Assembly: GCF_044324875.1 (NCBI RefSeq)
Contig: NZ_CP172185.1
DNA: 64,000 bases
Reading direction: 5' to 3' (one strand)
From: Escherichia coli
GTDB taxonomy: Bacteria; Pseudomonadota; Gammaproteobacteria; Enterobacterales; Enterobacteriaceae
This document shows, one piece after another, positions 16,011 through 51,704 of the stretch. How positions within the stretch are numbered: position 1 is the first letter of the stretch; each line of letters starts with the position of its first letter. The translations under genes were made by a program, and so were the position numbers. Under the pieces are notes generated by a model that saw nothing but the letters and a program-made list of their open reading frames with translations, did no database searches and had not been told where the DNA came from.

Positions 16011-16184
16011 TTACTGACTCGCCGCAGCCAACTCTTCTTCTGACACCCCGGTAAAACGCATGATGTCCGCAAGAGGGACTCCGGATTACAGCATTCTTTT
16101 GGCGATATCCGGGGCTTCCAGGCGTCGATCCAATAAATAACCAATCAGGTAACTAATAAGATATTCTCTTTCTGCATCTGTCAT
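16011..16184 (-). pseudogene. degenerate duplicate of the rpnA C-terminal (RpnS-like) module with an in-frame stop
   Basis: Minus-strand translation MTDAEREYLISYLIGYLLDRRLEAPDIAKRML-stop-SGVPLADIMRFTGVSEEELAAASQ aligns with the rpnA C-terminus MTIAERL...[32 protein letters not shown]; nucleotide similarity visible by eye. Confidence 0.5.
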
Positions 16185-16201
16185 TAAAACCATCCTTTAC
16201 G

Positions 16202-16366
16202 TTATTGATGATTTATTTCAGCAAGGTCTTCAACCGTCAGGCTGGTAAATCGCAGAACGTCCTCAAGAGAGACTCCGGCATCCAGCATGGTTTTGGCAAT
16301 ATTTAGGGCGTTGGTACGTATACCTTTCTGAAACCCCTCTTGCCGCAATCTTTCCGCAATAGTCAT
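16202..16366 (-). CDS. candidate in-frame internal small protein (RpnS-like, 54 aa) nested in the 3' end of rpnA
   Basis: Internal ATG ([11 protein letters not shown]...) preceded by AAGGAGAG 6 nt upstream on the coding strand; same frame and stop as rpnA. Confidence 0.45.
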
Positions 16367-17095
16367 TAAACTCTCCTTGTGTTTCGGTGAACGTTCGGCA
16401 ACACCGTCGATAAAATCGTTAAAACGTACCGCATCGCCAGTTTGCAGTATGTAATTAAACAGCCCTTTGATTTGTCTGTCATTAGCGTATCCACTACTTA
16501 ATAAGCAGGCCATTTGCTCTACCAGCCCCATCAGGTCGCGTTGACGAATATGTTTTTGAATTAACTCCAGTAGTGCCATACGTCGGTGCTGCATGATTTC
16601 ATCATCAGGCATGACGGTGACATCAATCAGCGGAAATGCAGAGGCATAAAGCTGCCTTGCCAGGTTGGGATCGGCGAAACAATCAAGCCAACACAGCGAA
16701 TAGGGATAGGGGCTTTCAATACCGTGGTAAAACAACAATGGCACCACCATCGGCAAGGTTTTGTATCCGGCATCCAGGTGATTTTGCATTGCGGCAATGG
16801 CGTAGCGCATCATGCGAAATGCGATCAGTTTGTTTGAGGTGCTTTGATGTTCAATCAGACAATAGATGTATCCTGGTCCTTGTTCCGTTTTCACCGACCA
16901 CAGCACGTCGGAATAGCTTTCACGCAGATCGTCATCAATAAAGCTGCTCGACTCCAGCTTGAGGGTTTTCATATCACAGAGCGCGTGAATAGGTGCCGGT
17001 AAATGGAACGCAAGAAAATCGCGCGCCGTCTCCGGTTGGCGTAAAAAGAGTTTGAACAGCGCATCGTGTGGGGTGGAACTCTGCTTTTTGCTCAT
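16202..17095 (-). CDS. rpnA: Rpn-family recombination-promoting nuclease (transposase_31 / PD-(D/E)XK-like)
   Basis: 297-aa ORF recognised as YhgA/RpnA. Confidence 0.85.
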
Positions 17096-34824: not shown

Positions 34825-37377
34825 TCAGAACAATTCCTGTGCCTCGCCATTATCGATAATGGTCGTTCCCACCTCGTGCACCGCCTGTTGTGTCGGCTGC
34901 GTACCTTCGATGAAATACTCTTCGCGGCTGTTGCCACCATTAGCTAACTGCCCGGTGCTGCGATCGATATTCACCGTCACAATACCCGGCGGCGGCGTCA
35001 GCGGCTGCTCCGGCACACCTTCAAGAACGGCTTTCATATAAGCGTCCCATGCAGGCTGGGCACTCTTGGCACCGCCTTCGTAACCTGAGATCTGATCTTT
35101 AATCGCTCCGGAAGCCGTTGTATGACCGAGATTACGACGGTGATCATCAAAGCCAATCCAGACCGAGGTCACAACGCCCGGACCGTAACCCGAAAACCAC
35201 GCATCTTTCGAACTGTTAGTGGTACCGGTTTTCCCGCCGATATCGCGACGCTGCAAATCACGACCTGCACGCCAGCCGGTACCCTGCCAGCCTGGCTCAC
35301 CAAAGATATTGGTGTTCAAAGCACTCTTAATCAGGAATGCCAGCGGAGTGTTGATGACGTGCGGTGCGTACTCCTGCGCGCCAGTCTTCGCCACTAACGC
35401 CTGATTTGCCTGCTCCAGCTGCGGCATTGGCACAGAAACATTCTGCTGCTCGCGGGAGATAGCGACATCTTCAACATCGTTATTTTCCAGCACGTTCGAT
35501 TTCTGCGTATCACCGTAAATTACCGGAATATCGCATTCCGGGCAGGCTACTTTCGGTTTCGCTTCGAAAATCACGCCGCCCTGATCGTTTTCAATTTTGC
35601 TGATAAACCACGGGTCCACCAGGAAGCCGCCGTTCGCCATGACCGCGTAGCCGCGCGCCACCTGCATTGGGGTGAATGACGCTGAACCCAGCGCCAGCGA
35701 TTCGGTGTGGACAATGTTTTGCGCCGGGAAGCCGAAGCGTTGCAGATATTCTGCAGCGTAGTCGACGCCCATCGCCCGCATTGCGCGTACCATCACCACG
35801 TTTTTCGACTGGCCCAGTCCCTGACGTAAGCGAATTGGACCAGCATATTGTGGCGGCGAGTTTTTCGGCTGCCAGTCAGAACCGGCACCTGCGTCCCAGC
35901 GAGAAATTGGCACATCGTTCAACATACTTGCCAGCGTCAGACCTTTATCCATCGCCGCGGTGTAGAGGAACGGTTTGATGTTGGAACCCACCTGACGCAG
36001 TGCCTGGGTGGCGCGGTTAAACTTGCTCTGATTGAAATCAAAGCCACCGACCAGCGCCATAACGGCACCGTTTTGCGGATTGATCGACACCAGCGCCGAG
36101 TTCACTTCCGGCACTTGTGCCAGCCACCAAGCATCGCCAACCTGACGAACCCAGATTTGCTGACCCGTTTGCAGAACATCGGTCACTTTACGCGGCGTCG
36201 GTCCCTGCTGAGTATCCGAACGGTAAGGACGCGCCCAGCGAACGCCTTCCATACTCAATGCGACGGTCGACCCGTCCGCCAGCATCGCCGTCGCTTCCTG
36301 AGGATTGGCGCTGGTGACTGCGGCAGGTAGCAGAGGACCATAGGTCGGCAGCGCCTTCAACGTATCGGTAATCTTGTTGTTATCCCACGCCGACTCGCCC
36401 ACTTTCCACAGCACATTTGCCGGGCCGCGATAGCCGTGGCGCATGTCGTAGTCCAGCACGTTATTACGTACCGCCTGCTGTGCGGCCTGCTGCACTTTGC
36501 GGGTGATGGTGGTGTAAATGCGATAACCGTCTTCATAGGCACTTTCGCCATAACGGTTATACATCTCCTGGCGCACCATTTCGCTCAGGTACGGCGCAGA
36601 GAAAGCAATCTCCGGCGCGTGATAGTTAGCGTTAATCGCCTCAGTGCGTGTCTGATCGAACTGTTGCTGGGTGATATACCCTTCATCCAGCATCCGCGAC
36701 AGTACGACGTTACGCCGCGCGACGGCACGATCCATTGAGTAGAGCGGATTAAAGGTGGAAGGCGCTTTCGGCAGCCCGGCTATCACCGCCATTTCGTTCA
36801 GCGTCAGTTGGTCGACCGTTTTACCGAAATAGACTTGTGCCGCAGCACCGACACCATAGGCGCGGTAACCGAGGTAAATCTTGTTCAGATAAAGCTCGAG
36901 GATCTCGTCTTTCGTCAGCAATTGTTCAATGCGAATCGCGAGGAAGACTTCCTTAATCTTACGCATCAGCGTGCGTTCTGGACTGAGGAAGAAGTTTCTC
37001 GCCAGCTGCTGGGTAATGGTACTCGCCCCTTGTGACGCGTGGCCGGAGAACAGCGCCACACTTGCCGCACGGAAGATCCCCACCGGGTCAACGCCGTGAT
37101 GCTCGTAGAAGCGGCTGTCTTCCGTCGCGATAAAGGCTTTCACCATCTCCGGCGGGATTTGATCCAACGTAACCGGAATACGACGTTTCTCACCGTATTG
37201 AGCGATCAGCTCGCCATCGGCGCTGTAAATCTGCATCGGAATTTGCAGGCGAACATCTTTTAATGTCGCCACATCCGGCAGTTGTGGCTCGATGTAGCGG
37301 TATAGGCCATAAATCGAGCCTGCTCCCAGCAGAATGCAACAGACTGCAAGGATCAAAAAATACTTTACGAACTTCAC
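34825..37377 (-). CDS. mrcA: penicillin-binding protein 1A (bifunctional transglycosylase/transpeptidase)
   Basis: Frame 34825-37401; start assigned to GTG at 37377 (VKFVKYFLILAV) giving 850 aa. Confidence 0.9.
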   Translation of the reverse strand: MKFVKYFLILAVCCILLGAGSIYGLYRYIEPQLPDVATLKDVRLQIPMQIYSADGELIAQYGEKRRIPVTLDQIPPEMVKAFIATEDSRFYEHHGVDPVGIFRAASVALFSGHASQGASTITQQLARNFFLSPERTLMRKIKEVFLAIRIEQLLTKDEILELYLNKIYLGYRAYGVGAAAQVYFGKTVDQLTLNEMAVIAGLPKAPSTFNPLYSMDRAVARRNVVLSRMLDEGYITQQQFDQTRTEAINANYHAPEIAFSAPYLSEMVRQEMYNRYGESAYEDGYRIYTTITRKVQQAAQQAVRNNVLDYDMRHGYRGPANVLWKVGESAWDNNKITDTLKALPTYGPLLPAAVTSANPQEATAMLADGSTVALSMEGVRWARPYRSDTQQGPTPRKVTDVLQTGQQIWVRQVGDAWWLAQVPEVNSALVSINPQNGAVMALVGGFDFNQSKFNRATQALRQVGSNIKPFLYTAAMDKGLTLASMLNDVPISRWDAGAGSDWQPKNSPPQYAGPIRLRQGLGQSKNVVMVRAMRAMGVDYAAEYLQRFGFPAQNIVHTESLALGSASFTPMQVARGYAVMANGGFLVDPWFISKIENDQGGVIFEAKPKVACPECDIPVIYGDTQKSNVLENNDVEDVAISREQQNVSVPMPQLEQANQALVAKTGAQEYAPHVINTPLAFLIKSALNTNIFGEPGWQGTGWRAGRDLQRRDIGGKTGTTNSSKDAWFSGYGPGVVTSVWIGFDDHRRNLGHTTASGAIKDQISGYEGGAKSAQPAWDAYMKAVLEGVPEQPLTPPPGIVTVNIDRSTGQLANGGNSREEYFIEGTQPTQQAVHEVGTTIIDNGEAQELF

Positions 37378-37496
37378 TGGAAATTTCCCATTTAGTTTCA
37401 TTTGGGCAGTTTATAAACAAACGCGCGGTAGTATAAAGGCAAGCCAGACGCATTGATATACCCGTCAGAGTGACGGGTGATAAGGAGATCATCACA

Positions 37497-38276
37497 ATGG
37501 CATTTAAGATCTGGCAAATTGGTTTGCATTTACAACAGCAAGAAGCGGTAGCGGTTGCTATCGTGCGGGGCACAAAAGAATGTTTTTTGCAACGCTGGTG
37601 GCGGTTGCCGCTGGAGAACGACATAATCAAAGATGGGCGGATTGTTGATGCGCAGCGGCTGGCTAACACGTTGTTACCGTGGAGTCGCGAACTGCCGCAG
37701 CGTCATCACATTATGTTGGCGTTTCCCGCCAGTCGCACATTACAGCGGTCATTTCCACGCCCGTCGATGTCCCTTGGTGAGCGGGAGCAAACGGCCTGGC
37801 TGTCCGGGACGATGGCCCGCGAGCTGGATATGGATCCGGACTCCCTGCGCTTCGATTACAGCGAAGACTCACTCAGTCCCGCCTATAACGTGACTACCGC
37901 GCAAAGCAAAGAGTTGGCAACGCTGCTTACTCTGGCAGAAAGGTTGCGTGTTCATGTTAGCGCGATCACCCCGGATGCCAGTGCATTACAGCGATTCCTG
38001 CCTTTTTTACCTTCTCATCAGCAATGTCTGGCCTGGCGTGATAACGAACAGTGGCTGTGGGCGACGCGCTATCGCTGGGGGCGCAAACTGGCGGTGGGGA
38101 TAACTAGCGCGAAGGAGCTGGCGGCAGCGTTATCCGTTGATCCCGAAAGCGTCGCGATATGTGGCGAAGGCGGATTTGATCCCTGGGAGGCCGTTTCTGT
38201 TCGTCAGCCGCCGCTACCGCCGCCAGGTGGAGACTTTGCCATCGCGCTGGGGCTGGCGCTTGGGAAGGCGTACTGA
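37497..38276 (+). CDS. hofM: PilM-like type IV pilus/DNA-utilisation assembly protein
   Basis: 259-aa frame from MAFKIWQIGLHL; first gene of five overlapping genes. Confidence 0.8.
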   Translation: MAFKIWQIGLHLQQQEAVAVAIVRGTKECFLQRWWRLPLENDIIKDGRIVDAQRLANTLLPWSRELPQRHHIMLAFPASRTLQRSFPRPSMSLGEREQTAWLSGTMARELDMDPDSLRFDYSEDSLSPAYNVTTAQSKELATLLTLAERLRVHVSAITPDASALQRFLPFLPSHQQCLAWRDNEQWLWATRYRWGRKLAVGITSAKELAAALSVDPESVAICGEGGFDPWEAVSVRQPPLPPPGGDFAIALGLALGKAY

Positions 38277-38815
38277 TGAACCCGCCAATTAATTTTTTGC
38301 CCTGGCGACAGCAACGCCGGACCGCTTTTCTTCGTTTCTGGTTGCTGATGTTCGTTGCGCCTCTGCTGCTGGCTGTCGGGATAACGCTAATACTGCGTCT
38401 GACAAGCAACGCCGAAGCACGCGTAGACACCGTTTTGCTTCAGGCGGAACAACAACTCGCCCGCAGCTTACAGATAACGAAACCACGTTTGCTGGAACGC
38501 CAGCAGTTACGCGAACAGCGTTTGCAAAGGCAGCTCCAGCGACAATTTACCCGTGACTGGCAATCTGCGCTGGAAGCACTGGCGGCGCTTTTACCCGAAC
38601 ACGCCTGGCTGACAACGATAAGCTGGCAGCAGGGAACGCTGGAGATCAAGGGGCTGACAACAAGCATTACCGCGTTAAACGCACTAGAAACGTCACTCCG
38701 CCAGGATGCTTCTTTTCATCTCAATCAGCGGGGGGCCACGCAGCAGGATACGCAGGGACGCTGGCAATTTGAGTATCAGTTAACAAGAAAGGTTAGCGAT
38801 GGACATGCTCTTTGA
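38276..38815 (+). CDS. hofN: PilN-like DNA-utilisation protein
   Basis: 179-aa ORF, ATGA overlap with hofM stop; single N-terminal TM helix. Confidence 0.8.
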   Translation: MNPPINFLPWRQQRRTAFLRFWLLMFVAPLLLAVGITLILRLTSNAEARVDTVLLQAEQQLARSLQITKPRLLERQQLREQRLQRQLQRQFTRDWQSALEALAALLPEHAWLTTISWQQGTLEIKGLTTSITALNALETSLRQDASFHLNQRGATQQDTQGRWQFEYQLTRKVSDGHAL

Positions 38816-39239
38816 CTGGTGGTTCGTCGCATCACCCCGCCTCCGCCAGCTTTGCTGGGCAGTCTGGTTGCTGGTGTTAGTTACGCTCATTTTTCTGTCA
38901 TCGACACACCAGGAAGAGAGCGACGCATTAATTCGACTACGGGCGAGTCATCACCAGCAGTGGGCCGCACTGTATCGCCTGGTAGACACCACTCCCTTCA
39001 GCGAGGAAAAAACGCTGCCCTTTTCGCCACTGGATTTTCAGTTATCCGGCACGCAACTGGTTTACTGGCATCCATCCGCGCAGGGAGGTGAGTTGGCGTT
39101 GAAAACGCTGTGGGAAGCAGTGCCATCGGCATTTACACGGCTGGCAGAGCGCAACGTCAGCGTGAGCCGTTTTTCGTTAAGCGTGGAAGGTGATGACCTT
39201 TTGTTCACGCTACAACTGGAGACGCCGCATGAGGGTTAA
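38799..39239 (+). CDS. hofO: PilO-like DNA-utilisation protein
   Basis: 146-aa ORF overlapping hofN. Confidence 0.8.
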   Translation: MDMLFDWWFVASPRLRQLCWAVWLLVLVTLIFLSSTHQEESDALIRLRASHHQQWAALYRLVDTTPFSEEKTLPFSPLDFQLSGTQLVYWHPSAQGGELALKTLWEAVPSAFTRLAERNVSVSRFSLSVEGDDLLFTLQLETPHEG

Positions 39240-39633
39240 ACGCTGGTTGTTGGCAGGTATTGCATTGTGCCTTTTAACCGGTATGCGTGACCCTTTTAAA
39301 CCGCCGGAAGATCTATGCCGGATTAGCGAACTTAGCCAGTGGCGCTATCAGGGGATAGTAGGGCGAGGCGAGCGCATCATCGGTGTAATAAAAGACGGGC
39401 AAAAGAAATGGCGACGGGTGCAGCAAAACGATGTGCTGGAAAACGGTTGGACAATTTTACAGCTGACGCCAGACGCACTAACGCTGGGAACCGGGACAAA
39501 CTGCGAACCGCCACACTGGTTGTGGCAACGGCAAGGAGATACAAATGAAGCAATGGATAGCCGCACTACTGTTGATGCTTATACCCGGCGTACAGGCGGC
39601 AAAGCCGCAAAAAGTGACGCTGATGGTGGATGA
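39229..39633 (+). CDS. hofP: PilP-like DNA-utilisation lipoprotein
   Basis: 134-aa frame from MRVKRWLLAGIALCLLTG (lipoprotein-like signal). Confidence 0.75.
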   Translation: MRVKRWLLAGIALCLLTGMRDPFKPPEDLCRISELSQWRYQGIVGRGERIIGVIKDGQKKWRRVQQNDVLENGWTILQLTPDALTLGTGTNCEPPHWLWQRQGDTNEAMDSRTTVDAYTRRTGGKAAKSDADGG

Positions 39634-40783
39634 CGTTCCGGTAGCTCAGGTGTTGCAGGCGCTGGCTGAACAGGAGAAGTTGAACCTGGTCGTGTCGCCA
39701 GACGTCAGCGGTACGGTGTCGTTACATCTAACAGATGTTCCCTGGAAGCAGGCACTACAAACTGTAGTAAAAAGCGCCGGACTGATAACGCGGCAGGAAG
39801 GCAACATTCTCTCGGTGCATTCCGTTGCCTGGCAGAATGACAATATCGCCCGTCAGGAGGCGGAGCAGGCGCGGGCGCAGGCAAATCTGCCGCTGGAAAA
39901 TCGCAATATTACTCTGCAATACGCCGACGCCGGAGAGCTGGCGAAAGCGGGGGAGAAGCTACTGAGTGCCAAAGGGAGTATGACCGTCGATAAACGCACC
40001 AATCGCCTTTTGCTGCGAGATAACAAAGCGGCGTTAAGCGCGCTTGAACAGTGGGTAGCGCAAATGGATCTGCCGGTCGGGCAGGTTGAGCTGTCGGCGC
40101 ATATTGTCACCATTAATGAAAAAAGTTTGCGTGAGTTAGGCGTGAAATGGACGTTGGCTGATGCGCAACAAGCTGGTGGCGTTGGGCAAGTCACCACGCT
40201 TGGCAGCGACCTCTCCGTAGCGACGGCGACAACGCATGTCGGTTTTAACATTGGACGCATCAACGGACGTTTACTGGATCTTGAGCTTTCCGCGCTCGAA
40301 CAAAAACAGCAGCTGGATATTATCGCCAGTCCGCGTCTGCTTGCCTCACATCTTCAGCCTGCCAGCATTAAACAGGGGAGCGAAATTCCATATCAGGTTT
40401 CCAGCGGGGAAAGTGGCGCGACGTCGGTGGAATTTAAAGAGGCCGTCCTGGGGATGGAAGTTACGCCCACGGTGTTACAAAAAGGTCGCATCCGGCTGAA
40501 ATTACACATCAGCCAGAACGTTCCGGGGCAGGTGCTACAGCAGGCCGATGGCGAAGTGTTGGCGATTGATAAGCAGGAGATCGAAACGCAGGTCGAGGTC
40601 AAAAGCGGAGAAACGTTGGCGCTGGGCGGCATTTTTACCCGTAAAAATAAATCGGGTCAGGATAGCGTACCGTTGCTTGGCGACATTCCCTGGTTCGGGC
40701 AATTATTTCGTCATGACGGAAAAGAAGATGAACGACGCGAGTTAGTGGTGTTTATCACGCCACGACTGGTTTCCAGTGAGTAA
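39545..40783 (+). CDS. hofQ: outer-membrane secretin (PilQ/ComE-like)
   Basis: 412-aa ORF with signal peptide and secretin C-terminal domain. Confidence 0.9.
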   Translation: MKQWIAALLLMLIPGVQAAKPQKVTLMVDDVPVAQVLQALAEQEKLNLVVSPDVSGTVSLHLTDVPWKQALQTVVKSAGLITRQEGNILSVHSVAWQNDNIARQEAEQARAQANLPLENRNITLQYADAGELAKAGEKLLSAKGSMTVDKRTNRLLLRDNKAALSALEQWVAQMDLPVGQVELSAHIVTINEKSLRELGVKWTLADAQQAGGVGQVTTLGSDLSVATATTHVGFNIGRINGRLLDLELSALEQKQQLDIIASPRLLASHLQPASIKQGSEIPYQVSSGESGATSVEFKEAVLGMEVTPTVLQKGRIRLKLHISQNVPGQVLQQADGEVLAIDKQEIETQVEVKSGETLALGGIFTRKNKSGQDSVPLLGDIPWFGQLFRHDGKEDERRELVVFITPRLVSSE

Positions 40784-41183
40784 ACAGCCGTAAAAGCGGT
40801 AATGTTTTTACGCTGAACATGTTTCATCTATTTGACGCGCGCAGGTATTTAGCATACAAGGAGTACCGATTTGAGAGTTGGTGCTCTTCGCTGCCTGCGT
40901 TCCATGATGATGATTTATCATTCAGGCGGCATTTTGCTGTCTTTTTTACGCTAATCTTACCCGGTGATTTATCGCCAGAGCGGTGGTAGCAAGGCAGCGC
41001 GCTTGCAGCGACCAGATATGCAGAGGGATGGGTGATTTATTCAGTTGCCAAACCCGCTGGAGTATTGAGATAATTTTCAGTCTGACTCTCGCAATATCTT
41101 ATGAGGTTTCAGTTCATGTCCTGCGGCGCTCTCTGAGCGAAGCGGGTTTATCATTAACGAATAGTCTTAGTAGTACCGAAAAA

Positions 41184-41705
41184 ATGGCAGAGAAACGCAA
41201 TATCTTTCTGGTTGGGCCTATGGGTGCCGGAAAAAGCACTATTGGGCGCCAGTTAGCTCAACAACTCAATATGGAATTTTACGATTCCGATCAAGAGATT
41301 GAGAAACGAACCGGAGCTGATGTGGGCTGGGTTTTCGATTTAGAAGGCGAAGAAGGCTTCCGCGATCGCGAAGAAAAGGTCATCAATGAGTTGACCGAGA
41401 AACAGGGTATTGTGCTGGCTACTGGCGGCGGCTCTGTGAAATCCCGCGAAACGCGTAACCGTCTTTCCGCACGTGGCGTTGTCGTTTATCTTGAAACGAC
41501 CATCGAAAAGCAACTTGCACGCACGCAGCGTGATAAAAAACGCCCGTTGCTGCACGTTGAAACACCGCCGCGTGAAGTTCTGGAAGCGTTGGCCAATGAA
41601 CGCAATCCGCTGTATGAAGAGATTGCCGACGTGACCATTCGTACTGATGATCAAAGCGCTAAAGTGGTCGCAAACCAGATTATTCACATGCTGGAAAGCA
41701 ACTAA
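41184..41705 (+). CDS. aroK: shikimate kinase I
   Basis: 173-aa frame from [21 protein letters not shown] (P-loop). Confidence 0.95.
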
Positions 41706-41761
41706 TTCTGGCTTTATATACACTCGTCTGCGGGTACAGTAATTAAGGTGGATGTCGCGTT

Positions 41762-42850
41762 ATGGAGAGGATTGTCGTTACTCTCGGGGAACGTAGTTAC
41801 CCAATTACCATCGCATCTGGTTTGTTTAATGAACCAGCTTCATTCTTACCGCTGAAATCGGGCGAGCAGGTCATGTTGGTTACCAACGAAACCCTGGCTC
41901 CTCTGTATCTCGATAAGGTCCGCGGCGTACTTGAACAGGCGGGTGTTAACGTCGATAGCGTTATCCTCCCTGACGGCGAGCAGTATAAAAGCCTGGCTGT
42001 ACTCGATACCGTCTTTACGGCGTTGTTACAAAAGCCGCATGGTCGCGATACTACGCTGGTGGCGCTTGGCGGCGGCGTAGTGGGCGATCTGACCGGCTTT
42101 GCGGCGGCGAGTTATCAGCGCGGTGTACGTTTCATTCAAGTCCCGACGACGTTGCTGTCGCAGGTCGATTCCTCCGTTGGCGGCAAAACTGCGGTCAACC
42201 ATCCCCTCGGTAAAAACATGATTGGCGCGTTCTACCAGCCTGCTTCAGTGGTGGTGGATCTCGACTGTCTGAAAACGCTTCCCCCGCGTGAGTTAGCGTC
42301 GGGGCTGGCAGAAGTCATCAAATACGGCATTATTCTTGACGGTGCGTTTTTCAACTGGCTGGAAGAGAATCTGGATGCGTTGTTGCGTCTGGACGGTCCG
42401 GCAATGGCGTACTGTATTCGCCGTTGTTGTGAACTGAAGGCAGAAGTTGTCGCCGCCGACGAGCGCGAAACCGGGTTACGTGCTTTACTGAATCTGGGAC
42501 ATACCTTTGGTCATGCCATTGAAGCTGAAATGGGGTATGGCAATTGGTTACACGGTGAAGCGATCGCTGCGGGTATGGTGATGGCGGCGCGGACGTCGCA
42601 ACGTCTCGGGCAGTTTAGTTCTGCCGAAACGCAGCGTATTATAACCCTGCTCACGCGGGCTGGGTTACCGGTCAATGGGCCGCGCGAAATGTCTGCGCAG
42701 GCGTATTTACCGCACATGCTGCGTGACAAGAAAGTCCTTGCGGGAGAGATGCGCTTAATTCTTCCGTTGGCAATTGGTAAGAGTGAAGTTCGCAGCGGCG
42801 TTTCGCACGAGCTTGTTCTTAACGCCATTGCCGATTGTCAATCAGCGTAA
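41762..42850 (+). CDS. aroB: 3-dehydroquinate synthase
   Basis: 362-aa ORF recognised as AroB. Confidence 0.95.
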
Positions 42851-42941
42851 CAACAAGAAAGGTCAGGCCGCTTATCAAGCGGTCTATTAGCTTCAGGTTA
42901 ATTGCAACGTGGTAAGCATTAACCTTTTAGTGGGGTGTTAA

Positions 42942-44228
42942 ATGGATGAATTCAAACCAGAAGACGAGCTGAAACCCGATCCCAGCGATCGTCGTACTGG
43001 TCGTTCTCGTCAATCTTCTGAACGTTCTGAGCGTACTGAACGTGGCGAACCGCAGATCAATTTTGATGATATTGAACTTGATGACACTGACGATCGCCGT
43101 CCGACTCGTGCGCAAAAAGAGCGCAATGAGGAACCGGAACTCGAAGAAGAAATTGACGAATCCGAAGATGAAACCGTGGATGAAGAGCGCGTAGAGCGTC
43201 GTCCGCGTAAGCGCAAAAAAGCAGCCAGTAAACCCGCTTCTCGTCAGTATATGATGATGGGCGTCGGCATTCTGGTTCTCCTGCTGTTGATTATCGGTAT
43301 CGGTTCTGCGCTAAAAGCCCCCTCGACCTCTTCCAGCGATCAAACCGCGTCTGGCGAGAAGAGTATTGATCTTGCTGGCAATGCGACCGATCAGGCGAAT
43401 GGCGTGCAGCCAGCACCGGGAACCACGTCTGCGGAAAATACTCAGCAGGATGTATCTCTGCCGCCGATCTCTTCTACGCCGACTCAAGGGCAAACCCCGG
43501 CGGCAACGGATGGTCAACAACGTGTTGAAGTGCAGGGTGACCTGAACAATGCGCTGACCCAGCCACAAAATCAGCAACAGTTGAACAATGTGGCGGTCAA
43601 TTCCACGTTGCCGACTGAACCCGCGACGGTCGCGCCTGTTCGCAATGGCAATGCATCGCGTGACACGGCGAAAACGCAAACCGCTGAACGTCCGGCCACC
43701 ACGCGTCCAGCTCGTCAGCAGGCGGTGATTGAACCGAAAAAACCGCAAGCAACCGTGAAAACGGAACCGAAGCCGGTAGCTCAGACGCCGAAGCGTATTG
43801 AACCAGCTGCTCCTGTGGCGAGCGCGAAGGCACCGGCTGCGACCTCTACGCCAGCACCAAAAGAGACCGCAACTACGGCTCCAGTACAGACGGCATCCCC
43901 GGCGCAAACCACGGCAACACCAGCCGCTGGAGGGAAGACCGCAGGTAATGTTGGTTCGTTGAAATCGGCACCGTCCAGCCATTACACTCTGCAGCTGAGC
44001 AGTTCCTCTAACTACGACAACCTGAACGGTTGGGCGAAGAAAGAGAATCTGAAAAACTACGTTGTCTATGAAACGACGCGTAATGGTCAGCCGTGGTATG
44101 TCCTGGTTTCTGGCGTGTACGCTTCGAAAGAAGAGGCGAAAAAAGCGGTATCTACATTGCCAGCAGATGTCCAGGCCAAAAACCCGTGGGCGAAACCGCT
44201 GCGTCAGGTACAGGCCGATCTGAAGTAA
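42942..44228 (+). CDS. damX: cell-division protein DamX (SPOR domain)
   Basis: 428-aa ORF; acidic N-terminus, single TM, long Q/P/A/T-rich linker, C-terminal SPOR domain. Confidence 0.9.
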
Positions 44229-44334
44229 TCAAGGTTATCTCCCGCAATGGTTTATCATCGCGGGAGTTGCCTGAAGCGCTGGATGCTGTCGGAGCTTTCT
44301 CCACAGCCGGAGAAGGTGTAATTAGTTAGTCAGC

Positions 44335-45171
44335 ATGAAGAAAAATCGCGCTTTTTTGAAGTGGGCAGGGGGCAAGTATCCCCTGCTTGATGATATTAAA
44401 CGGCATTTGCCCAAGGGCGAATGTCTGGTTGAGCCTTTTGTAGGTGCCGGGTCGGTGTTTCTCAACACCGACTTTTCTCGTTATATCCTTGCCGATATCA
44501 ATAGCGACCTGATCAGTCTCTATAACATTGTGAAGATGCGTACTGATGAGTACGTACAGGCCGCACGCGAGCTGTTTGTTCCCGAAACAAATTGCGCCGA
44601 GGTTTACTATCAGTTCCGCGAAGAGTTCAACAAAAGCCAGGATCCGTTCCGTCGGGCGGTACTGTTTTTATATTTGAACCGCTACGGTTACAACGGCCTG
44701 TGTCGTTACAATCTGCGCGGTGAGTTTAACGTGCCGTTTGGCCGCTACAAAAAACCCTATTTCCCGGAAGCAGAGTTGTATCACTTCGCTGAAAAAGCGC
44801 AGAATGCCTTTTTCTATTGTGAGTCTTACGCCGATAGCATGGCGCGCGCAGATGATGCATCCGTCGTCTATTGCGATCCGCCTTATGCGCCGCTGTCTGC
44901 GACTGCCAACTTTACGGCGTATCACACAAACAGTTTTACGCTTGAACAACAAGCGCATCTGGCGGAGATCGCCGAAGGTCTGGTTGATCGCCATATTCCA
45001 GTGCTGATCTCCAATCACGATACGATGTTAACGCGTGAGTGGTATCAGCGCGCAAAATTGCATGTCGTCAAAGTTCGACGCAGTATAAGCAGCAACGGCG
45101 GCACACGTAAAAAGGTGGACGAACTGCTGGCTTTGTACAAACCAGGAGTCGTTTCACCCGCGAAAAAATAA
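44335..45171 (+). CDS. dam: DNA adenine methyltransferase (GATC)
   Basis: 278-aa ORF; catalytic DPPY motif. Confidence 0.95.
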
Positions 45172-45188
45172 TTCTCAAGGAGAAGCGG

Positions 45189-45866
45189 ATGAAACAGTAT
45201 TTGATTGCCCCCTCAATTCTGTCGGCTGATTTTGCCCGCCTGGGTGAAGATACCGCAAAAGCCCTGGCAGCTGGCGCTGATGTCGTGCATTTTGACGTCA
45301 TGGATAACCACTATGTTCCCAATCTGACGATTGGGCCAATGGTGCTGAAATCCTTGCGTAACTACGGCATTACCGCCCCTATCGACGTACACCTGATGGT
45401 GAAACCGGTCGATCGCATTGTGCCTGATTTCGCTGCCGCTGGTGCCAGCATCATTACCTTTCATCCAGAAGCCTCCGAGCATGTTGACCGCACGCTGCAA
45501 CTGATTAAAGAAAATGGCTGTAAAGCGGGTCTGGTATTTAACCCGGCGACACCTCTGAGCTATCTGGATTACGTGATGGACAAACTGGATGTGATCCTGC
45601 TGATGTCCGTCAACCCAGGTTTCGGCGGTCAGTCTTTCATTCCGCAAACACTGGATAAACTGCGCGAAGTACGTCGTCGTATCGACGAGTCTGGCTTTGA
45701 CATTCGTCTGGAAGTGGACGGTGGCGTGAAGGTGAACAACATTGGCGAAATCGCTGCGGCGGGCGCAGATATGTTCGTCGCCGGTTCGGCAATCTTCGAC
45801 CAGCCAGACTACAAAAAAGTCATTGATGAAATGCGCAGTGAACTGGCAAAGGTAAGTCATGAATAA
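45189..45866 (+). CDS. rpe: ribulose-phosphate 3-epimerase
   Basis: 225-aa ORF recognised as Rpe. Confidence 0.95.
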
Positions 45867-46617
45867 GTTTGAAGATATTCGCGGCGTCGCTTTTGATCTC
45901 GATGGTACGCTGGTGGACAGTGCTCCTGGCTTGGCTACCGCAGTAGATATGGCGCTGTATGCGCTGGAGTTGCCCGTCGCAGGTGAAGAACGCGTTATAA
46001 CCTGGATTGGTAACGGCGCAGATGTTCTGATGGAGCGCGCATTGACCTGGGCGCGTCAGGAACGTGCGACTCTGCGTAAAACAATGGGTAAACCGCCCGT
46101 TGATGACGACATTCCGGCAGAAGAACAAGTACGTATTCTGCGTAAACTATTCGATCGCTACTATGGCGAGGTTGCCGAAGAGGGGACGTTTTTGTTCCCG
46201 CACGTTGCCGATACGCTGGGCGCATTGCAGGCTAAAGGCCTGCCGTTGGGCCTGGTCACCAACAAACCGACGCCGTTCGTCGCGCCGCTGCTGGAAGCCT
46301 TAGATATCGCTAAATACTTCAGCGTGGTGATTGGTGGTGATGATGTGCAAAACAAAAAACCGCATCCGGACCCGCTGTTACTGGTGGCTGAGCGGATGGG
46401 AATTGCTCCACAACAGATGCTGTTTGTTGGCGACTCACGCAATGATATTCAGGCAGCAAAAGCGGCAGGTTGCCCATCAGTTGGCTTAACCTACGGATAT
46501 AACTACGGCGAGGCTATCGATCTCAGCCAGCCTGATGTAATTTATCAGTCTATAAATGACCTTCTGCCCGCATTAGGGCTTCCGCATAGCGAAAATCAGG
46601 AATCGAAAAATGACTAA
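45859..46617 (+). CDS. gph: phosphoglycolate phosphatase
   Basis: 252-aa ORF; HAD motif [10 protein letters not shown]; overlaps rpe stop. Confidence 0.95.
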
Positions 46618-47614
46618 GCCCATCGTTTTTAGTGGCGCACAGCCCTCAGGTGAATTGACCATTGGTAACTACATGGGTGCGCTGCGTCAGTGGGTAAACA
46701 TGCAGGATGACTACCATTGCATTTACTGTATCGTTGACCAACACGCGATCACCGTGCGCCAGGATGCACAGAAGCTGCGTAAAGCGACGCTGGATACGCT
46801 GGCCTTGTATCTGGCTTGTGGTATCGATCCTGAGAAAAGCACCATTTTTGTTCAGTCCCACGTACCAGAACATGCGCAGTTAGGCTGGGCACTGAACTGC
46901 TATACCTACTTCGGCGAACTGAGCCGCATGACGCAGTTTAAAGATAAATCTGCGCGTTATGCCGAGAACATCAATGCTGGTCTGTTTGACTATCCGGTGC
47001 TGATGGCAGCGGACATCCTGCTGTATCAAACTAATCTGGTACCGGTGGGTGAAGACCAGAAACAGCACCTGGAACTGAGCCGCGATATCGCCCAGCGTTT
47101 TAACGCGCTGTATGGCGAGATCTTTAAAGTGCCGGAGCCGTTTATTCCGAAATCTGGCGCGCGCGTAATGTCGCTGCTGGAGCCGACCAAAAAGATGTCC
47201 AAGTCTGACGATAACCGCAATAACGTTATCGGCCTGCTGGAAGATCCGAAATCGGTGGTGAAGAAAATCAAACGCGCGGTCACCGACTCCGACGAGCCGC
47301 CGGTAGTTCGCTACGATGTGCAGAACAAAGCGGGCGTTTCCAACCTGCTGGATATCCTTTCTGCGGTAACGGGCCAGAGCATCCCGGAACTGGAAAAACA
47401 GTTCGAAGGCAAGATGTATGGTCATCTGAAAGGCGAAGTGGCTGATGCCGTTTCCGGTATGCTGACTGAATTGCAGGAACGCTATCACCGTTTCCGCAAT
47501 GACGAAGCCTTCCTGCAACAGGTGATGAAAGATGGCGCGGAAAAAGCCAGCGCACACGCTTCCCGTACGCTAAAAGCGGTGTACGAAGCGATTGGTTTTG
47601 TGGCGAAGCCGTAA
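46610..47614 (+). CDS. trpS: tryptophan--tRNA ligase
   Basis: 334-aa ORF; class I aaRS KMSKS motif. Confidence 0.95.
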
Positions 47615-47629
47615 TTTAACATTAATGCC

Positions 47630-47656
47630 AAAAACCGGGGAAACCCGGTTTTTTTA
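47630..47656 (+). terminator. rho-independent terminator of the dam-trpS operon
   Basis: ccgggg-aaa-cccgg stem followed by TTTTTTT. Confidence 0.65.
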
Positions 47657-47724
47657 TCCTCTTTTTGTAATAATCCGAAAAAATGTGAAGCGCCTCGCCG
47701 TTTCCACATCTCGCAGTTGCCACT

Positions 47725-47746
47725 TATCTTCATTTTTATGAAGATA
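47725..47746. promoter_or_regulatory. perfect 9-bp inverted repeat (candidate operator) upstream of yhfZ
   Basis: tatcttcat-tttt-atgaagata, ending 29 bp before the yhfZ ATG. Confidence 0.4.
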
Positions 47747-47774
47747 TAAATATTCATTTTATTGAAAATTTACT

Positions 47775-48680
47775 ATGCGTCGAACGTTTATCAAAAAAGA
47801 AGGCGTCGTCATCACGACACTGGCCCGTTATTTGTTGGGTGAAAAGTGCGGTAATCGACTGAAAACCATAGATGAGCTGGCAACTGAATGCCGTTCATCC
47901 GTTGGCCTGACGCAGGCCGCGTTGAAAACGCTGGAATCAAGCGGAGCGATACGGATTGAACGCCGTGGGCGCAATGGCAGTTATCTGGTCGAGATGGATA
48001 ACAAAGCATTGCTGACTCATGTGGATATCAACAACGTGGTATGTGCGATGCCCTTGCCCTATACCCGTTTGTACGAAGGCCTGGCGAGCGGATTGAAAGC
48101 CCAGTTCGATGGCATTCCTTTTTACTATGCGCATATGCGCGGCGCGGATATTCGCGTGGAGTGTTTACTTAACGGCGTGTATGACATGGCGGTTGTTTCC
48201 CGACTGGCGGCGGAAAGTTATCTCACGCAAAAAGGCTTATGCCTCGCGCTGGAGTTGGGGCCGCACACCTACGTTGGCGAGCACCAGTTGATTTGCCGTA
48301 AAGGCGAGTCCGCAAACGTGAAGCGCGTGGGGCTGGATAACCGTTCGGCGGATCAGAAAATCATGACCGATGTCTTTTTTGGCGATAGTGATGTGGAACG
48401 TGTCGATCTCTCTTATCACGAGAGTTTACAACGCATTGTTAAAGGCGATGTTGATGCGGTGATCTGGAACGTGGTGGCGGAAAACGAACTGACCATGCTG
48501 GGATTAGAAGCGACGCCGCTCACAGACGATCCGCGATTTTTACAGGCCACCGAAGCCGTGATCCTGACGCGAGTCGATGATTACCCAATGCAACAATTGC
48601 TGCGTGCAGTTGTTGATAAACAGGCCCTGCTTGCCCATCAACAACGAGTGGTCAGTGGGGAACAGGAACCCAGTTATTAA
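47775..48680 (+). CDS. yhfZ: putative HTH transcriptional regulator of the yhf cluster
   Basis: 301-aa ORF recognised as YhfZ. Confidence 0.8.
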   Translation: MRRTFIKKEGVVITTLARYLLGEKCGNRLKTIDELATECRSSVGLTQAALKTLESSGAIRIERRGRNGSYLVEMDNKALLTHVDINNVVCAMPLPYTRLYEGLASGLKAQFDGIPFYYAHMRGADIRVECLLNGVYDMAVVSRLAAESYLTQKGLCLALELGPHTYVGEHQLICRKGESANVKRVGLDNRSADQKIMTDVFFGDSDVERVDLSYHESLQRIVKGDVDAVIWNVVAENELTMLGLEATPLTDDPRFLQATEAVILTRVDDYPMQQLLRAVVDKQALLAHQQRVVSGEQEPSY

Positions 48681-48696
48681 ACGAAAGGCATCTGAA

Positions 48697-48807
48697 ATGG
48701 AAACCAGACTCAACCTGCTTTGCGATGCAGGCGTTATTGATAAGGACATCTGCAAAGGCATGATGCAGGTCGTCAACGTACTGGAAACTGAGTGTCATCT
48801 ACCGGTG
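48697..48807 (+). pseudogene. yhfY: 5' fragment (37 codons) of PRD-domain gene yhfY, interrupted by IS insertion
   Basis: ATG at 48697 with upstream AAAGG; frame METRLNLLCDAGVIDKDICKGMMQVVNVLETECHLPV runs into the IS end. Confidence 0.75.
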
Positions 48808-48880
48808 TGCGTATTCCGCTCTATTCGATCACGGATTGGCATCGAAGTCCGATCAGCGATTCGCATCCATTCGATCAACC
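48808..48880. repeat. IS21-family terminal repeat block (istB-proximal end)
   Basis: Reverse complement of the other end aligns over the tcgatc motif; repeated cgatcacggattggcatcg / cgatcagcgattcgcatcc units. Confidence 0.6.
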
Positions 48881-48906
48881 GGGAACTTAACTTTTTCTAC
48901 CGCTTT

Positions 48907-49662
48907 TTAACGCGTTTTTTCGCTGCTTTCCACTACCGGGGGATTTTTCCTCAGTGACTCTCCCTGAAGGACCACTCGGTGTGAGTTATGTACCAGTCTG
49001 TCCAGGATGGCATCTGCTGTTGTTGGGTTCTCCATCAGACCATGCCATTTATCTACCGGGAACTGGCTTACCACTATCGTGCTGCTTTGTCCGTAACGAT
49101 CCTCTATGAGCTCCAGAAGGTCATTACACTGGGCGTTACTTAACTGTTCCAGCCCCAGATCGTCCAGGATTAGAACCTGTATTTTTTGCAACTGTTTCAG
49201 ATATTTCAGCCAGCTGCCATCAACACGTCCCTGAGCCAGTTGTTCCAGTAATCGCCCGGTTCTACAGTACCGGACGCTGTGTTTCTGTCGACATGCCTGT
49301 TCGCCCAGCGCATTGGCTATCCAGCTCTTGCCACATCCTGTCGGACCGGTTATCAGCAGGTTTTTCCTGTGGGTTATGTAGTGGCCGTTCAGCAGTTCTC
49401 TCATCTGTTCAGCCCGCAGACCTCTTGAGGCCGGATAGCGCAGCCCTTCCGGTGTTGCCTGGTATTTCAGGCCGGCATTTTTTCTCAACCGTGCCACACG
49501 GCTGTTTTCCCTGCTCAGAAGCTCGTCATCAACCAGCAGCGTCAGCCTTTCCTCGAACGACAGTTCGTCGTAGGTCTGAGGCGTTTCCCGCTGCCGTATC
49601 AGGCTCCCGGCCATCGCCGGGAGTTTCAGTTGGGTCAGTTTGTTTAACAGGTTATCACTCAT
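48907..49662 (-). CDS. istB: IS21-family transposition helper ATPase IstB
   Basis: 251-aa frame from MSDNLLNKL with AAGGA RBS; Walker A GPTGCGKSW; start overlaps istA 3' end. Confidence 0.85.
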   Translation of the reverse strand: MSDNLLNKLTQLKLPAMAGSLIRQRETPQTYDELSFEERLTLLVDDELLSRENSRVARLRKNAGLKYQATPEGLRYPASRGLRAEQMRELLNGHYITHRKNLLITGPTGCGKSWIANALGEQACRQKHSVRYCRTGRLLEQLAQGRVDGSWLKYLKQLQKIQVLILDDLGLEQLSNAQCNDLLELIEDRYGQSSTIVVSQFPVDKWHGLMENPTTADAILDRLVHNSHRVVLQGESLRKNPPVVESSEKTR

Positions 49663-49678
49663 ACTGTTGTTCCTTCTG

Positions 49679-51214
49679 TCAGTGGTAGTAGCCCGGACCA
49701 CGCAGGTTTTCATGCTCTGAAGCATATGCCGGATGTTGTTCGCCCTGGCGGGATAATGGAAGCTCCAGGTTCTCCCGATGGTGACGCAGCAGATTGTCGA
49801 TAAAGCGTCTGTCAGGGGCGTTATAGTGCAGGGCAACGTAACAGGCCTTTTCCAGCCGTTCCGGGCCGTATTTTTTCTGAAGTGCCAGCAGCCCCAGAAC
49901 TGCACGATAAGCCAGTTCCGGATGGGGTTTTGCCTTCAGCATGGATTCAACCACCCGGCCTGTGGACGGGCCCGTACGTTTTCCCTGCTCGATCAGGCGT
50001 TCCGGTGTCCATGTCCCGTGCTGCCGGTGGCGCTCTGGCATGTGAAGCGGATTGGTTGTGTGTTTATATTCATGTGTGCTGCGCGGATGTTGCGCCACAC
50101 ACTGCCCCTTGTGCCAGAGCTGTACCACCGACTGCCCCGCCTTCAGTGACAGACGCTGACCGACCAGTTCGTGTGGAACGGAGTACCAGTGACGGGCATA
50201 TTCAACGTGGTAGTCAGGGCCAACCTTCACAGCTTTGTATTCCGTGTATTCATAAGGTGCCAGAGGCAGCGGAGAGAGTGCTGGCGCATCCAGTATGCGG
50301 AAGCGTTCTGCACGGGTTTGATTGCCGTACCCCTTCATTGGCCGGTTATTCATGTCTGTCAGTAACTCCCTAAGGCGCGCATTCAGCGCCCTGAGCGTGT
50401 GGAAGGTTTCATTACGGATGCGGGCAAGAAGCCATCGTTCAACGATGAGGACGCCGTTTTCTGCTTTTGGTTTATCTTTAGGTTTGCGTGGTCGGGCCGG
50501 GATGATAACCGTGCCATAGTGCTCAGCCAGTGCCTGATAACTGTCGTTGATGACAGGCTCATATCGATCGGCCTTTTTCACTGCGCTTCTGAGGTTATCG
50601 GGGATGAGCAGCTTCGGTACGCCGCCCAGGAAGGTCAGGCAACGGCTGTGGGCATTTAACCATGACATCATGTCCTGACCTTCGCACGCTTCAACGTAGG
50701 TATAGTTGGACGCCCCCATTACGGCCACGAAGATTGCCACGCGGCGTATCTCACCGGTGTCCGGATTAATAACAGGAACCGTAGGACCACAGAAGTCGAT
50801 AAAAAGCTTTTCGCCGGCACGATGCTCCTGGCGCATGGAGAGACGTCGCGTTTTTTTCCACTCCCGGTAGCAACGGCAGAAGTGCGAGTATCCCATCGCT
50901 TTGTTACCCGCCTGTGCCTTGTATTCCATCCACAACAGTTGCCGCGTCACACCTGGTTTTCTCATTTCCGTATCGAAGTACAACATGTCAGGCATTACAA
51001 GCTCTGATGCAAAGGTGTCTTTGGGCGGAAAAATGAGTTTCTCCAGCGTGTCATGGGATATATCAGCAGGTAATGGCCATGACAGAGAAGAGGCTTTGAA
51101 GCGGGCAAGAACCTCAAAAACGGTTGAGGCGCTGATGTGTAACGTCAGTCCGATACAACGGTTAGTCAGCTTCTTGTCGAACTTGAGCTGAAGGATCTTA
51201 AAACAGGTTTCCAT
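49679..51214 (-). CDS. istA: IS21-family transposase IstA
   Basis: 511-aa frame from METCFKILQ with AGGAG 5 nt upstream; DDE-integrase region with IstA-like RPRKPKDKPKAENGV motif; longer ORF-track start would lie in the terminal repeats. Confidence 0.8.
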   Translation of the reverse strand: METCFKILQLKFDKKLTNRCIGLTLHISASTVFEVLARFKASSLSWPLPADISHDTLEKLIFPPKDTFASELVMPDMLYFDTEMRKPGVTRQLLWMEYKAQAGNKAMGYSHFCRCYREWKKTRRLSMRQEHRAGEKLFIDFCGPTVPVINPDTGEIRRVAIFVAVMGASNYTYVEACEGQDMMSWLNAHSRCLTFLGGVPKLLIPDNLRSAVKKADRYEPVINDSYQALAEHYGTVIIPARPRKPKDKPKAENGVLIVERWLLARIRNETFHTLRALNARLRELLTDMNNRPMKGYGNQTRAERFRILDAPALSPLPLAPYEYTEYKAVKVGPDYHVEYARHWYSVPHELVGQRLSLKAGQSVVQLWHKGQCVAQHPRSTHEYKHTTNPLHMPERHRQHGTWTPERLIEQGKRTGPSTGRVVESMLKAKPHPELAYRAVLGLLALQKKYGPERLEKACYVALHYNAPDRRFIDNLLRHHRENLELPLSRQGEQHPAYASEHENLRGPGYYH

Positions 51215-51337
51215 AGTGCTCCTGGATTTTCTCTTTCTGGACATTGACGTCTCCACTGGTTTAAACACGGCAATGGAGACTGTGGTGAAAAGAGTTAATT
51301 CCCGGAGTGACTGGCAGGATGCCAATCAATGATCGGA

Positions 51338-51445
51338 AGCATGCCAAATCGTGATCGATTGTGATGCCAAACTGTGATCGGAGATGGATGCCAAATCATG
51401 ATCGATTCGAATGCCAAACTGCGATCGATTCAGATGCCATTTTGC
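51338..51445. repeat. IS21-family terminal repeat block (istA-proximal end) with about 5 iterated ~22-bp units
   Basis: gcatgccaaatcgtgatcgatt / gatgccaaactgtgatcgg / gatgccaaatcatgatcgatt / gaatgccaaactgcgatcgatt / cagatgccattttgc. Confidence 0.7.
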
Positions 51446-51446
51446 A

Positions 51447-51704
51447 CCGGTGCGCAGCGAGCAAGGAATGATGGCGATGACACATATGGCGAGCGCACTG
51501 ATGCGCAGTCGCCGTGGTGAAGAAATAGAGCCGCTGGACGCCGAATTGCTGGCAGAACTGGCGCAATCCAGCCACTGGCAAGCCGTTGTGCAATTGCATC
51601 AGGTATTGTTGAAGGAATTTGCACTGGAAGTTAACTCGTGTGAAGAAGGCTATTTGCTGGCCAACCTTTATGGATTATGGATGGCCGCGAACGAAGAGGC
51701 CTGA
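51447..51704 (+). pseudogene. yhfY: 3' fragment (83 codons) of yhfY separated from its 5' part by the IS
   Basis: Frame RSEQGMMAMTHMASALMRS...WMAANEEA is in phase with the 5' fragment once the IS and one copy of accggtg are removed. Confidence 0.75.

Follow-up and report, generated by a model that had tools for sequence, protein, structure and literature searches.

The insertion sequences of the IS21 family encode a DDE transposase, IstA, and an AAA+ helper ATPase, IstB, and are bounded by ends that read TG...CA. The family prototype, IS21 of plasmid R68.45, is reportedly 2,131 bp long, usually makes target-site duplications of 4 bp and is said to rely on a promoter that is formed at the junction of tandem copies. 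Target-site duplications in the family are 4-8 bp in length. Here we describe a complete ISSso4-like insertion sequence of this family, 2,639 bp long with termini 5'-TG...CA-3', that occupies positions 48808-51446 on the minus strand of a 64,000-nucleotide stretch of DNA from Escherichia coli (contig NZ_CP172185.1); the whole of that stretch is referred to as the window. In common with IS21, the element carries istB after istA, is bounded by TG...CA and has several repeats in its termini, but no counterpart of the IS21 junction promoter could be modelled for it.

IS5376 of Geobacillus stearothermophilus is the model element of the family for which structures have been solved, and the work on it underlies the mechanism that is ascribed to IstA and IstB (PMC10122671, PMC11208146). 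The element in the window shares with IS5376 the two-gene layout, a DDE triad that corresponds residue for residue, a beta-barrel (Mu-transpos_C_2) domain in IstA, an AAA+ IstB with both Walker motifs (A and B), and ends in which a terminal CA is accompanied by direct repeats at intervals of about 23 bp. The relationship is a distant one (phmmer E = 6e-14 for IstA and 4e-24 for IstB): IstA has 511 amino acids in our element and about 400 in IS5376, the istA-proximal repeats number six rather than two, and the duplications, which are 5 bp long in IS5376 (PMC10122671), are mostly 6 bp long (range 4-7) in the element described here.

A far closer relative is ISSso4, an ISfinder name that is in routine use for Shigella sonnei and E. 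coli, the E. coli form being called either "ISSso4-like" or "ISSso4" in the literature. The copy on the S. sonnei virulence plasmid pCFSAN030807_1 (NZ_CP023646.1), in which both proteins carry the name ISSso4 in RefSeq, was used as a proxy for it. This copy resembles the element in the window in its organisation, in its ends (TGCGTATTCC...GCCATTTTGCA) and in the lengths of its proteins (511 and 251 amino acids). It measures 2,638 bp as against 2,639 bp here, and the 98 differences between the two, which include one 1-bp indel, are evenly spread. Unlike the S. sonnei proxy, the variant in the window is the form that occurs in conjugative plasmids and in the chromosomes of E. coli.

Results

The boundaries of the element and its target-site duplication

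An initial annotation of the window, made from the sequence alone, had proposed a 2,638-bp IS21-family element that ended ...TTTTGC and was flanked by a 7-bp duplication, ACCGGTG. Our interpretation, in which we have very high confidence, is that this is an intact and probably still active ISSso4-like copy that transposed into yhfY at codon 37/38 and duplicated the 6 bp CCGGTG. As regards the boundaries, the two interpretations differ in the ownership of a single base. The string ACCGGTG is indeed present at 48801-48807 and again at 51446-51452, so that 7 bp are literally identical on the two sides, and duplications of 7 bp do exist for this element, in three of the 15 copies whose junctions we compared. 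These were the copy in the window, 13 that lie in E. coli chromosomes and one that is carried by a plasmid of Shigella sonnei. The left end TGCGTATTCC and the right end GCCATTTTGCA were the same in every one of them, and all 15 had the termini TGCGTATT...TTTTGCA, with the TG...CA arrangement that is expected of the IS21 family. Of the 14 copies that have a duplication, 10 show a base other than A immediately before it in the left flank; the terminal A at 51446 is therefore the element's own. Without this A, moreover, a copy would not have the 3'-CA, the end at which it is joined to the target by transposases of the IS21 family (PMC10122671). It is very unlikely, then, that the shorter element with its longer duplication is correct, and the junction comparison leads us to reject the 7-bp duplication: the flanking strings stand as described, but the duplication is one of 6 bp and the element measures 2,639 bp. 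The seventh base matches by chance, since position 48801 of the target is an A just as the last base of the element (51446) is, and it is because of that target A that the duplication had looked like 7 bp.

With the ends set by this comparison, the element extends from 48808 to 51446 and the two copies of the 6-bp duplication, CCGGTG, lie at 48802-48807 (left) and 51447-51452 (right). Short target-site duplications are a feature of the family, and their length varies among copies of this element: seven of the 15 compared have a 6-bp duplication, three a 5-bp and three a 7-bp one, and a single copy has 4 bp, while the remaining copy has none.

The terminal and subterminal repeats

The two ends of the element are imperfect terminal inverted repeats, as the initial annotation had proposed. 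When the first 62 nt and the reverse-complemented last 62 nt were aligned with gaps allowed, 48 of the 66 columns were identical and the score was 22, a value that was reached by none of 2000 shuffles of one arm (3.4 +/- 1.7, maximum 12). An ungapped, in-register comparison of the ends gave a result at chance (11/37 matches, which 31% of random pairs reached), so the inverted repeat can be demonstrated only with a gapped alignment.

The ends also carry a series of shorter repeats. The 17-nt unit ATGCCAAANNNTGATCG occurs seven times in the 64-kb window at no more than two mismatches, and all seven matches lie within approximately 130 bp of the ends of the element: the right end has five, on the plus strand, and the left end two, on the minus strand. 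At this threshold the unit is absent from the rest of the window. The istA-proximal end (IRL; 51318-51446, minus strand) is made up of a terminal repeat at 51433-51446 (...GATGCCATTTTGCA) and five subterminal copies of GATGCCAAAnnnTGATCG. In its six units the conserved ATGCC starts at 51319, 51341, 51364, 51388, 51411 and 51434, giving spacings of 22-24 bp. The istB-distal end (IRR; 48808-48867, minus strand) has the terminal sequence TGCGTATTCCGCTC and two inverted subterminal repeats, at 48825-48843 and 48849-48867. Copies of the GATGCCAAAnnnTGATCG unit are thus carried by both ends, in inverted orientation at the istB-distal one. Direct repeats with a spacing of 23 bp, together with a terminal CA, have been described in the terminal inverted repeats of IS21 elements (PMC10122671), and the arrangement at both ends of our element, with multiple direct repeats at intervals of about 23 bp that are presumed to be binding sites for IstA, matches the published layout in its spacing and in its terminal CA.

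The istA and istB genes

The two open reading frames that the initial annotation had assigned to istA and istB on the minus strand, with products of 511 and 251 amino acids, proved to be exact, and the same lengths are given in the RefSeq annotation of identical copies. The istA gene is located at 49679-51214 on the minus strand, its coding span being 49682-51214 when counted from the first ATG and its stop codon 49679-49681. It has the characteristics of the long upstream gene of an IS21-family element, encoding a DDE transposase with N-terminal DNA-binding domains. The IstA protein scored 284.7 bits over residues 9-317 against the NCBIfam model NF033546 (transpos_IS21), for which the curated cut-off is 160, and it contains the Pfam domains rve (131-245) and Mu-transpos_C_2 (316-387). 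Its nearest relative of solved structure is the IS5376 transposase IstA (PDB 8b4h, 8q4d). In the phmmer alignment, residues D140, D206 and E252 lie opposite D124, D187 and E233 of IS5376 IstA, which constitute its catalytic DDE motif (PMC10122671), and we predict that these three residues are the catalytic triad of the protein.

The shorter istB gene lies downstream on the same strand, at 48907-49662 (coding span 48910-49662, stop codon 48907-48909), as is expected of the gene for the AAA+ helper ATPase. Its product scored 257.8 bits against NF038214 (IS21_help_AAA, IS21-like helper ATPase IstB; cut-off 200), matched Pfam PF01695 (IstB_IS21) with E = 1.2e-60 and could be aligned over its full length with the IstB protein of IS5376 (PDB 8q3w, 5bq5). 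It has a Walker A motif, GPTGCGKS, at residues 106-113 and a Walker B motif, LILDDLG, at 164-170. The istA stop codon, TGA, is separated from the istB ATG by CAGAAGGAACAACAGT, so that istB starts 16 nt past the istA stop, and a predicted ribosome-binding site, AAGGAA, precedes the istB ATG. The scores of the two proteins and their Pfam domains bear out the assignment of the element to the IS21 family.

The insertion in yhfY

In E. coli K-12 strain MG1655 the order of genes at this locus is trpS, yhfZ, yhfY, yhfX, yhfW, php, yhfU, yhfT, yhfS. The initial annotation had placed the element in the yhfZ-yhfX region, but it is a gene, yhfY, that the insertion interrupts, and not the space between genes. 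The point of insertion follows codon 37 of yhfY, which encodes a 120-amino-acid PRD-domain protein in K-12. The 5' part of the gene (codons 1-37) is at 48697-48807 on the plus strand; its reading frame continues into the element and ends after 86 amino acids, of which 37 are native residues and 49 are read from the element. The 3' part (codons 38-120 and the stop codon) is at 51453-51704 on the plus strand, and the reconstructed reading frame is colinear with K-12 YhfY. Deletion of 48808-51452, which represents the element and one copy of the repeat, produces an open reading frame of 120 amino acids that aligns with K-12 yhfY without a gap, in keeping with the clean insertion that had been foreseen. 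The same reconstruction bears on the possibility that a repeat contig was misplaced in yhfY during assembly. Contigs of collapsed insertion sequences do occur, and in one public assembly a "plasmid" of 2,636 bp consists of nothing but this element; a misplaced repeat, however, would neither yield a precise 6-bp target duplication nor give a frame that closes perfectly upon removal of the element, and we think it extremely improbable that the insertion is an artefact of this kind.

Of 5,426 complete E. coli genomes, 5,066 have the empty site as reconstructed. The occupied left junction, represented by 400 bp of flank and 400 bp of element, was found in none of the 5,426 (the best coverage was approximately 53%), and an exact 38-mer that spans this junction had no match among GTDB species-representative genomes. 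With the empty site so widespread and the occupied junction in none of these genomes, the insertion is lineage-specific, and the earlier statements that it is absent from K-12 and specific to the strain hold good. The neighbouring genes retain their K-12 lengths (yhfZ 301, yhfX 387 and yhfW 408 amino acids); this, together with the base-identical copies found elsewhere, suggests that the insertion is recent.

The window as a whole is colinear with MG1655 from 3,560,109 to 3,498,728, with identities of 95.4-97.7%, and the element is its sole gap of more than approximately 220 bp relative to K-12, which agrees with its having been singled out as the only clear accessory element. IS21-family elements can mobilise flanking DNA, and this one might accordingly be thought to form an arm of some larger structure, a composite transposon or a genomic island. 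There is, however, no second or partial copy in the window, and both flanks are colinear core genome that is common to K-12 and to more than 5,000 genomes. We therefore reject the composite transposon or island, whose probability we consider negligible, and retain the single, self-contained ISSso4-like insertion.

Copies in other genomes and the identity of the element

The element is already known: it is a common, named insertion sequence of the Enterobacteriaceae and a close variant of ISSso4. A megablast search of the 5,426 complete E. coli genomes found matches in 1,744 of them and near-full copies in 225, at up to 23 places in one genome. Copies that are identical at every base (2638/2638 of the queried span) are present at unrelated chromosomal and plasmid sites in E. 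coli. In PLSDB a near-full copy was found in 232 plasmids, whose hosts are mostly Escherichia, with Salmonella, Shigella, Klebsiella and Enterobacter also represented; 376 of the 506 plasmids with matches are predicted to be conjugative.

The initial annotation had been unable to assign the element to a named insertion sequence, but a name can be given. On identical copies, RefSeq calls IstB an "IS21-like element ISSso4 family helper ATPase" and IstA simply an "IS21 family transposase". Compared with the copy on pCFSAN030807_1, the element in the window is 96.3% identical in its DNA, 499/511 (97.7%) in IstA and 244/251 (97.2%) in IstB. Isoforms of an insertion sequence are defined in ISfinder by identities of at least 95% at the nucleotide level and at least 98% in the amino acid sequence of the transposase. 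The nucleotide figure of 96.3%, for which the RefSeq-annotated ISSso4 proxy copy is the reference, exceeds the first of these values. With an amino acid identity that is borderline, the element is most safely called an "ISSso4-like variant". A copy on plasmid pSLK172-2 has been termed "ISSso4-like" (PMC6052338). In this plasmid, from strain SLK172, the left end of the element is 99.5% identical to that of the copy in the window and adjoins an IS91-family transposase.

Other copies provide some additional observations. Isolates from chickens or poultry account for 11 of 20 records with 100%-identical copies, which hints at circulation of precisely this variant among E. coli associated with poultry and in their plasmids. 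In E. coli ESDR8, the record "plasmid unnamed8" (NZ_JBXSPU010000008.1, 1-2636) is a linear contig of 2,636 bp that consists of the insertion sequence alone; the genome also has the element at 12 chromosomal places and at three places on one plasmid, and the contig is most likely a collapsed repeat and not a replicon. In avian pathogenic E. coli strain APEC E956 (NZ_CP087294.1), the copy at 201-2839 is without a duplication and joins fragments of two different phage genes, one for a terminase and one for a tail tape-measure protein; this genome holds 11 copies, and the junction suggests a rearrangement through recombination between copies.

Other features of the window

The host lineage is thinly represented among the complete E. 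coli genomes. The best identity found among them for window positions 36000-48800 was 99.2% over 12.8 kb, and for the reconstructed yhfZ-yhfX site (800 bp) it was 97.6%. Two smaller differences from K-12 were also seen. At 16117-16334 there are approximately 217 bp that are not in K-12, located at the 3' end of an rpnA homologue (open reading frame 16202-17095, minus strand, 297 amino acids), and here 16050-16115 and 16225-16300 resemble two diverged copies of one C-terminal coding piece. Between trpS and yhfZ, 16 bp in the window (47616-47632) take the place of approximately 146 bp in K-12 (3,512,486-3,512,632), a small intergenic indel that possibly reflects a repetitive extragenic element in K-12.

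Discussion

The copy of the ISSso4-like element in yhfY has intact genes with catalytic and Walker motifs, intact ends that bear the repeats and a target duplication, and many identical copies of it exist elsewhere. By analogy with the family, and with IS5376 in particular, IstA would bind the 23-bp-spaced repeats of both ends and assemble as a tetramer that pairs them, and would join the terminal 3'-CA to staggered positions in the target. Decamers of the AAA+ ATPase IstB would, as for IS5376, bend the target DNA and recruit and activate IstA, and repair of the staggered gaps would then create the target duplication that is typical of the family.

Some of our observations weigh against this picture of an active ISSso4 variant. 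A scan of 48600-51700 for the sigma-70 consensus found no site upstream of istA on the minus strand. When a circle or tandem junction was modelled by placing the right end next to the left with a spacer of 0-8 nt, no promoter that spanned the junction and matched at least 8/12 of the consensus was detected; with no promoter found across the abutted ends, an IS21-type junction-promoter step is unsupported for this element. The identity of IstA to the proxy, 97.7%, falls narrowly short of the 98% isoform value for transposases, and the name ISSso4 is founded on a RefSeq-annotated proxy and one paper. 

For the host, we infer that the insertion inactivates yhfY and that it probably has polar effects on the genes that follow, yhfX, yhfW, php, yhfU, yhfT and yhfS. 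Polarity is likely, as these genes are now cut off from the upstream promoter by 2.6 kb of antisense sequence that is not translated. On its plus strand the inserted sequence contains six terminator-like hairpins, as against 3.2 +/- 1.7 in shuffled sequences, and the sigma-70 scan of the same interval revealed nothing that faces outwards towards yhfX.

The lack of a promoter-like site upstream of istA is what might be expected if the copy were a dead and immobile relic. Such a relic would hardly be found, however, with both reading frames at full length, with the catalytic and Walker motifs intact and with both ends and the duplication preserved; its base identity with copies at many other sites, furthermore, implies that this exact sequence has moved recently. 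We judge it very improbable that the copy is a relic, and continue to regard the element as intact and probably still capable of transposition.

A more speculative proposal, which we think possible but doubtful, is that the 2,639-bp E. coli form constitutes a distinct sublineage of ISSso4 that is now expanding and may merit a name of its own, and that its insertion in yhfY may silence yhfZYXW-php-yhfUTS in a poorly sampled lineage. The base identity of copies across many chromosomes and conjugative plasmids and the share of poultry isolates (11/20) speak for an expanding sublineage; a name of its own might be justified by the amino acid identity, and the length of the duplication, 4-7 bp, is unusually variable.

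The interpretation that was offered at the outset was essentially right, and the boundaries as corrected here (TG...CA, 2,639 bp, 6-bp duplication) will help in mapping the element in short-read data. What is new is the position of the insertion only, and its value is a local one: yhfY is disrupted in a way that is seen in 0 of 5,426 complete E. coli genomes. The insertion in yhfY could serve as a marker of the lineage, and it provides a natural knock-out, probably a polar one, of the uncharacterised yhf cluster.

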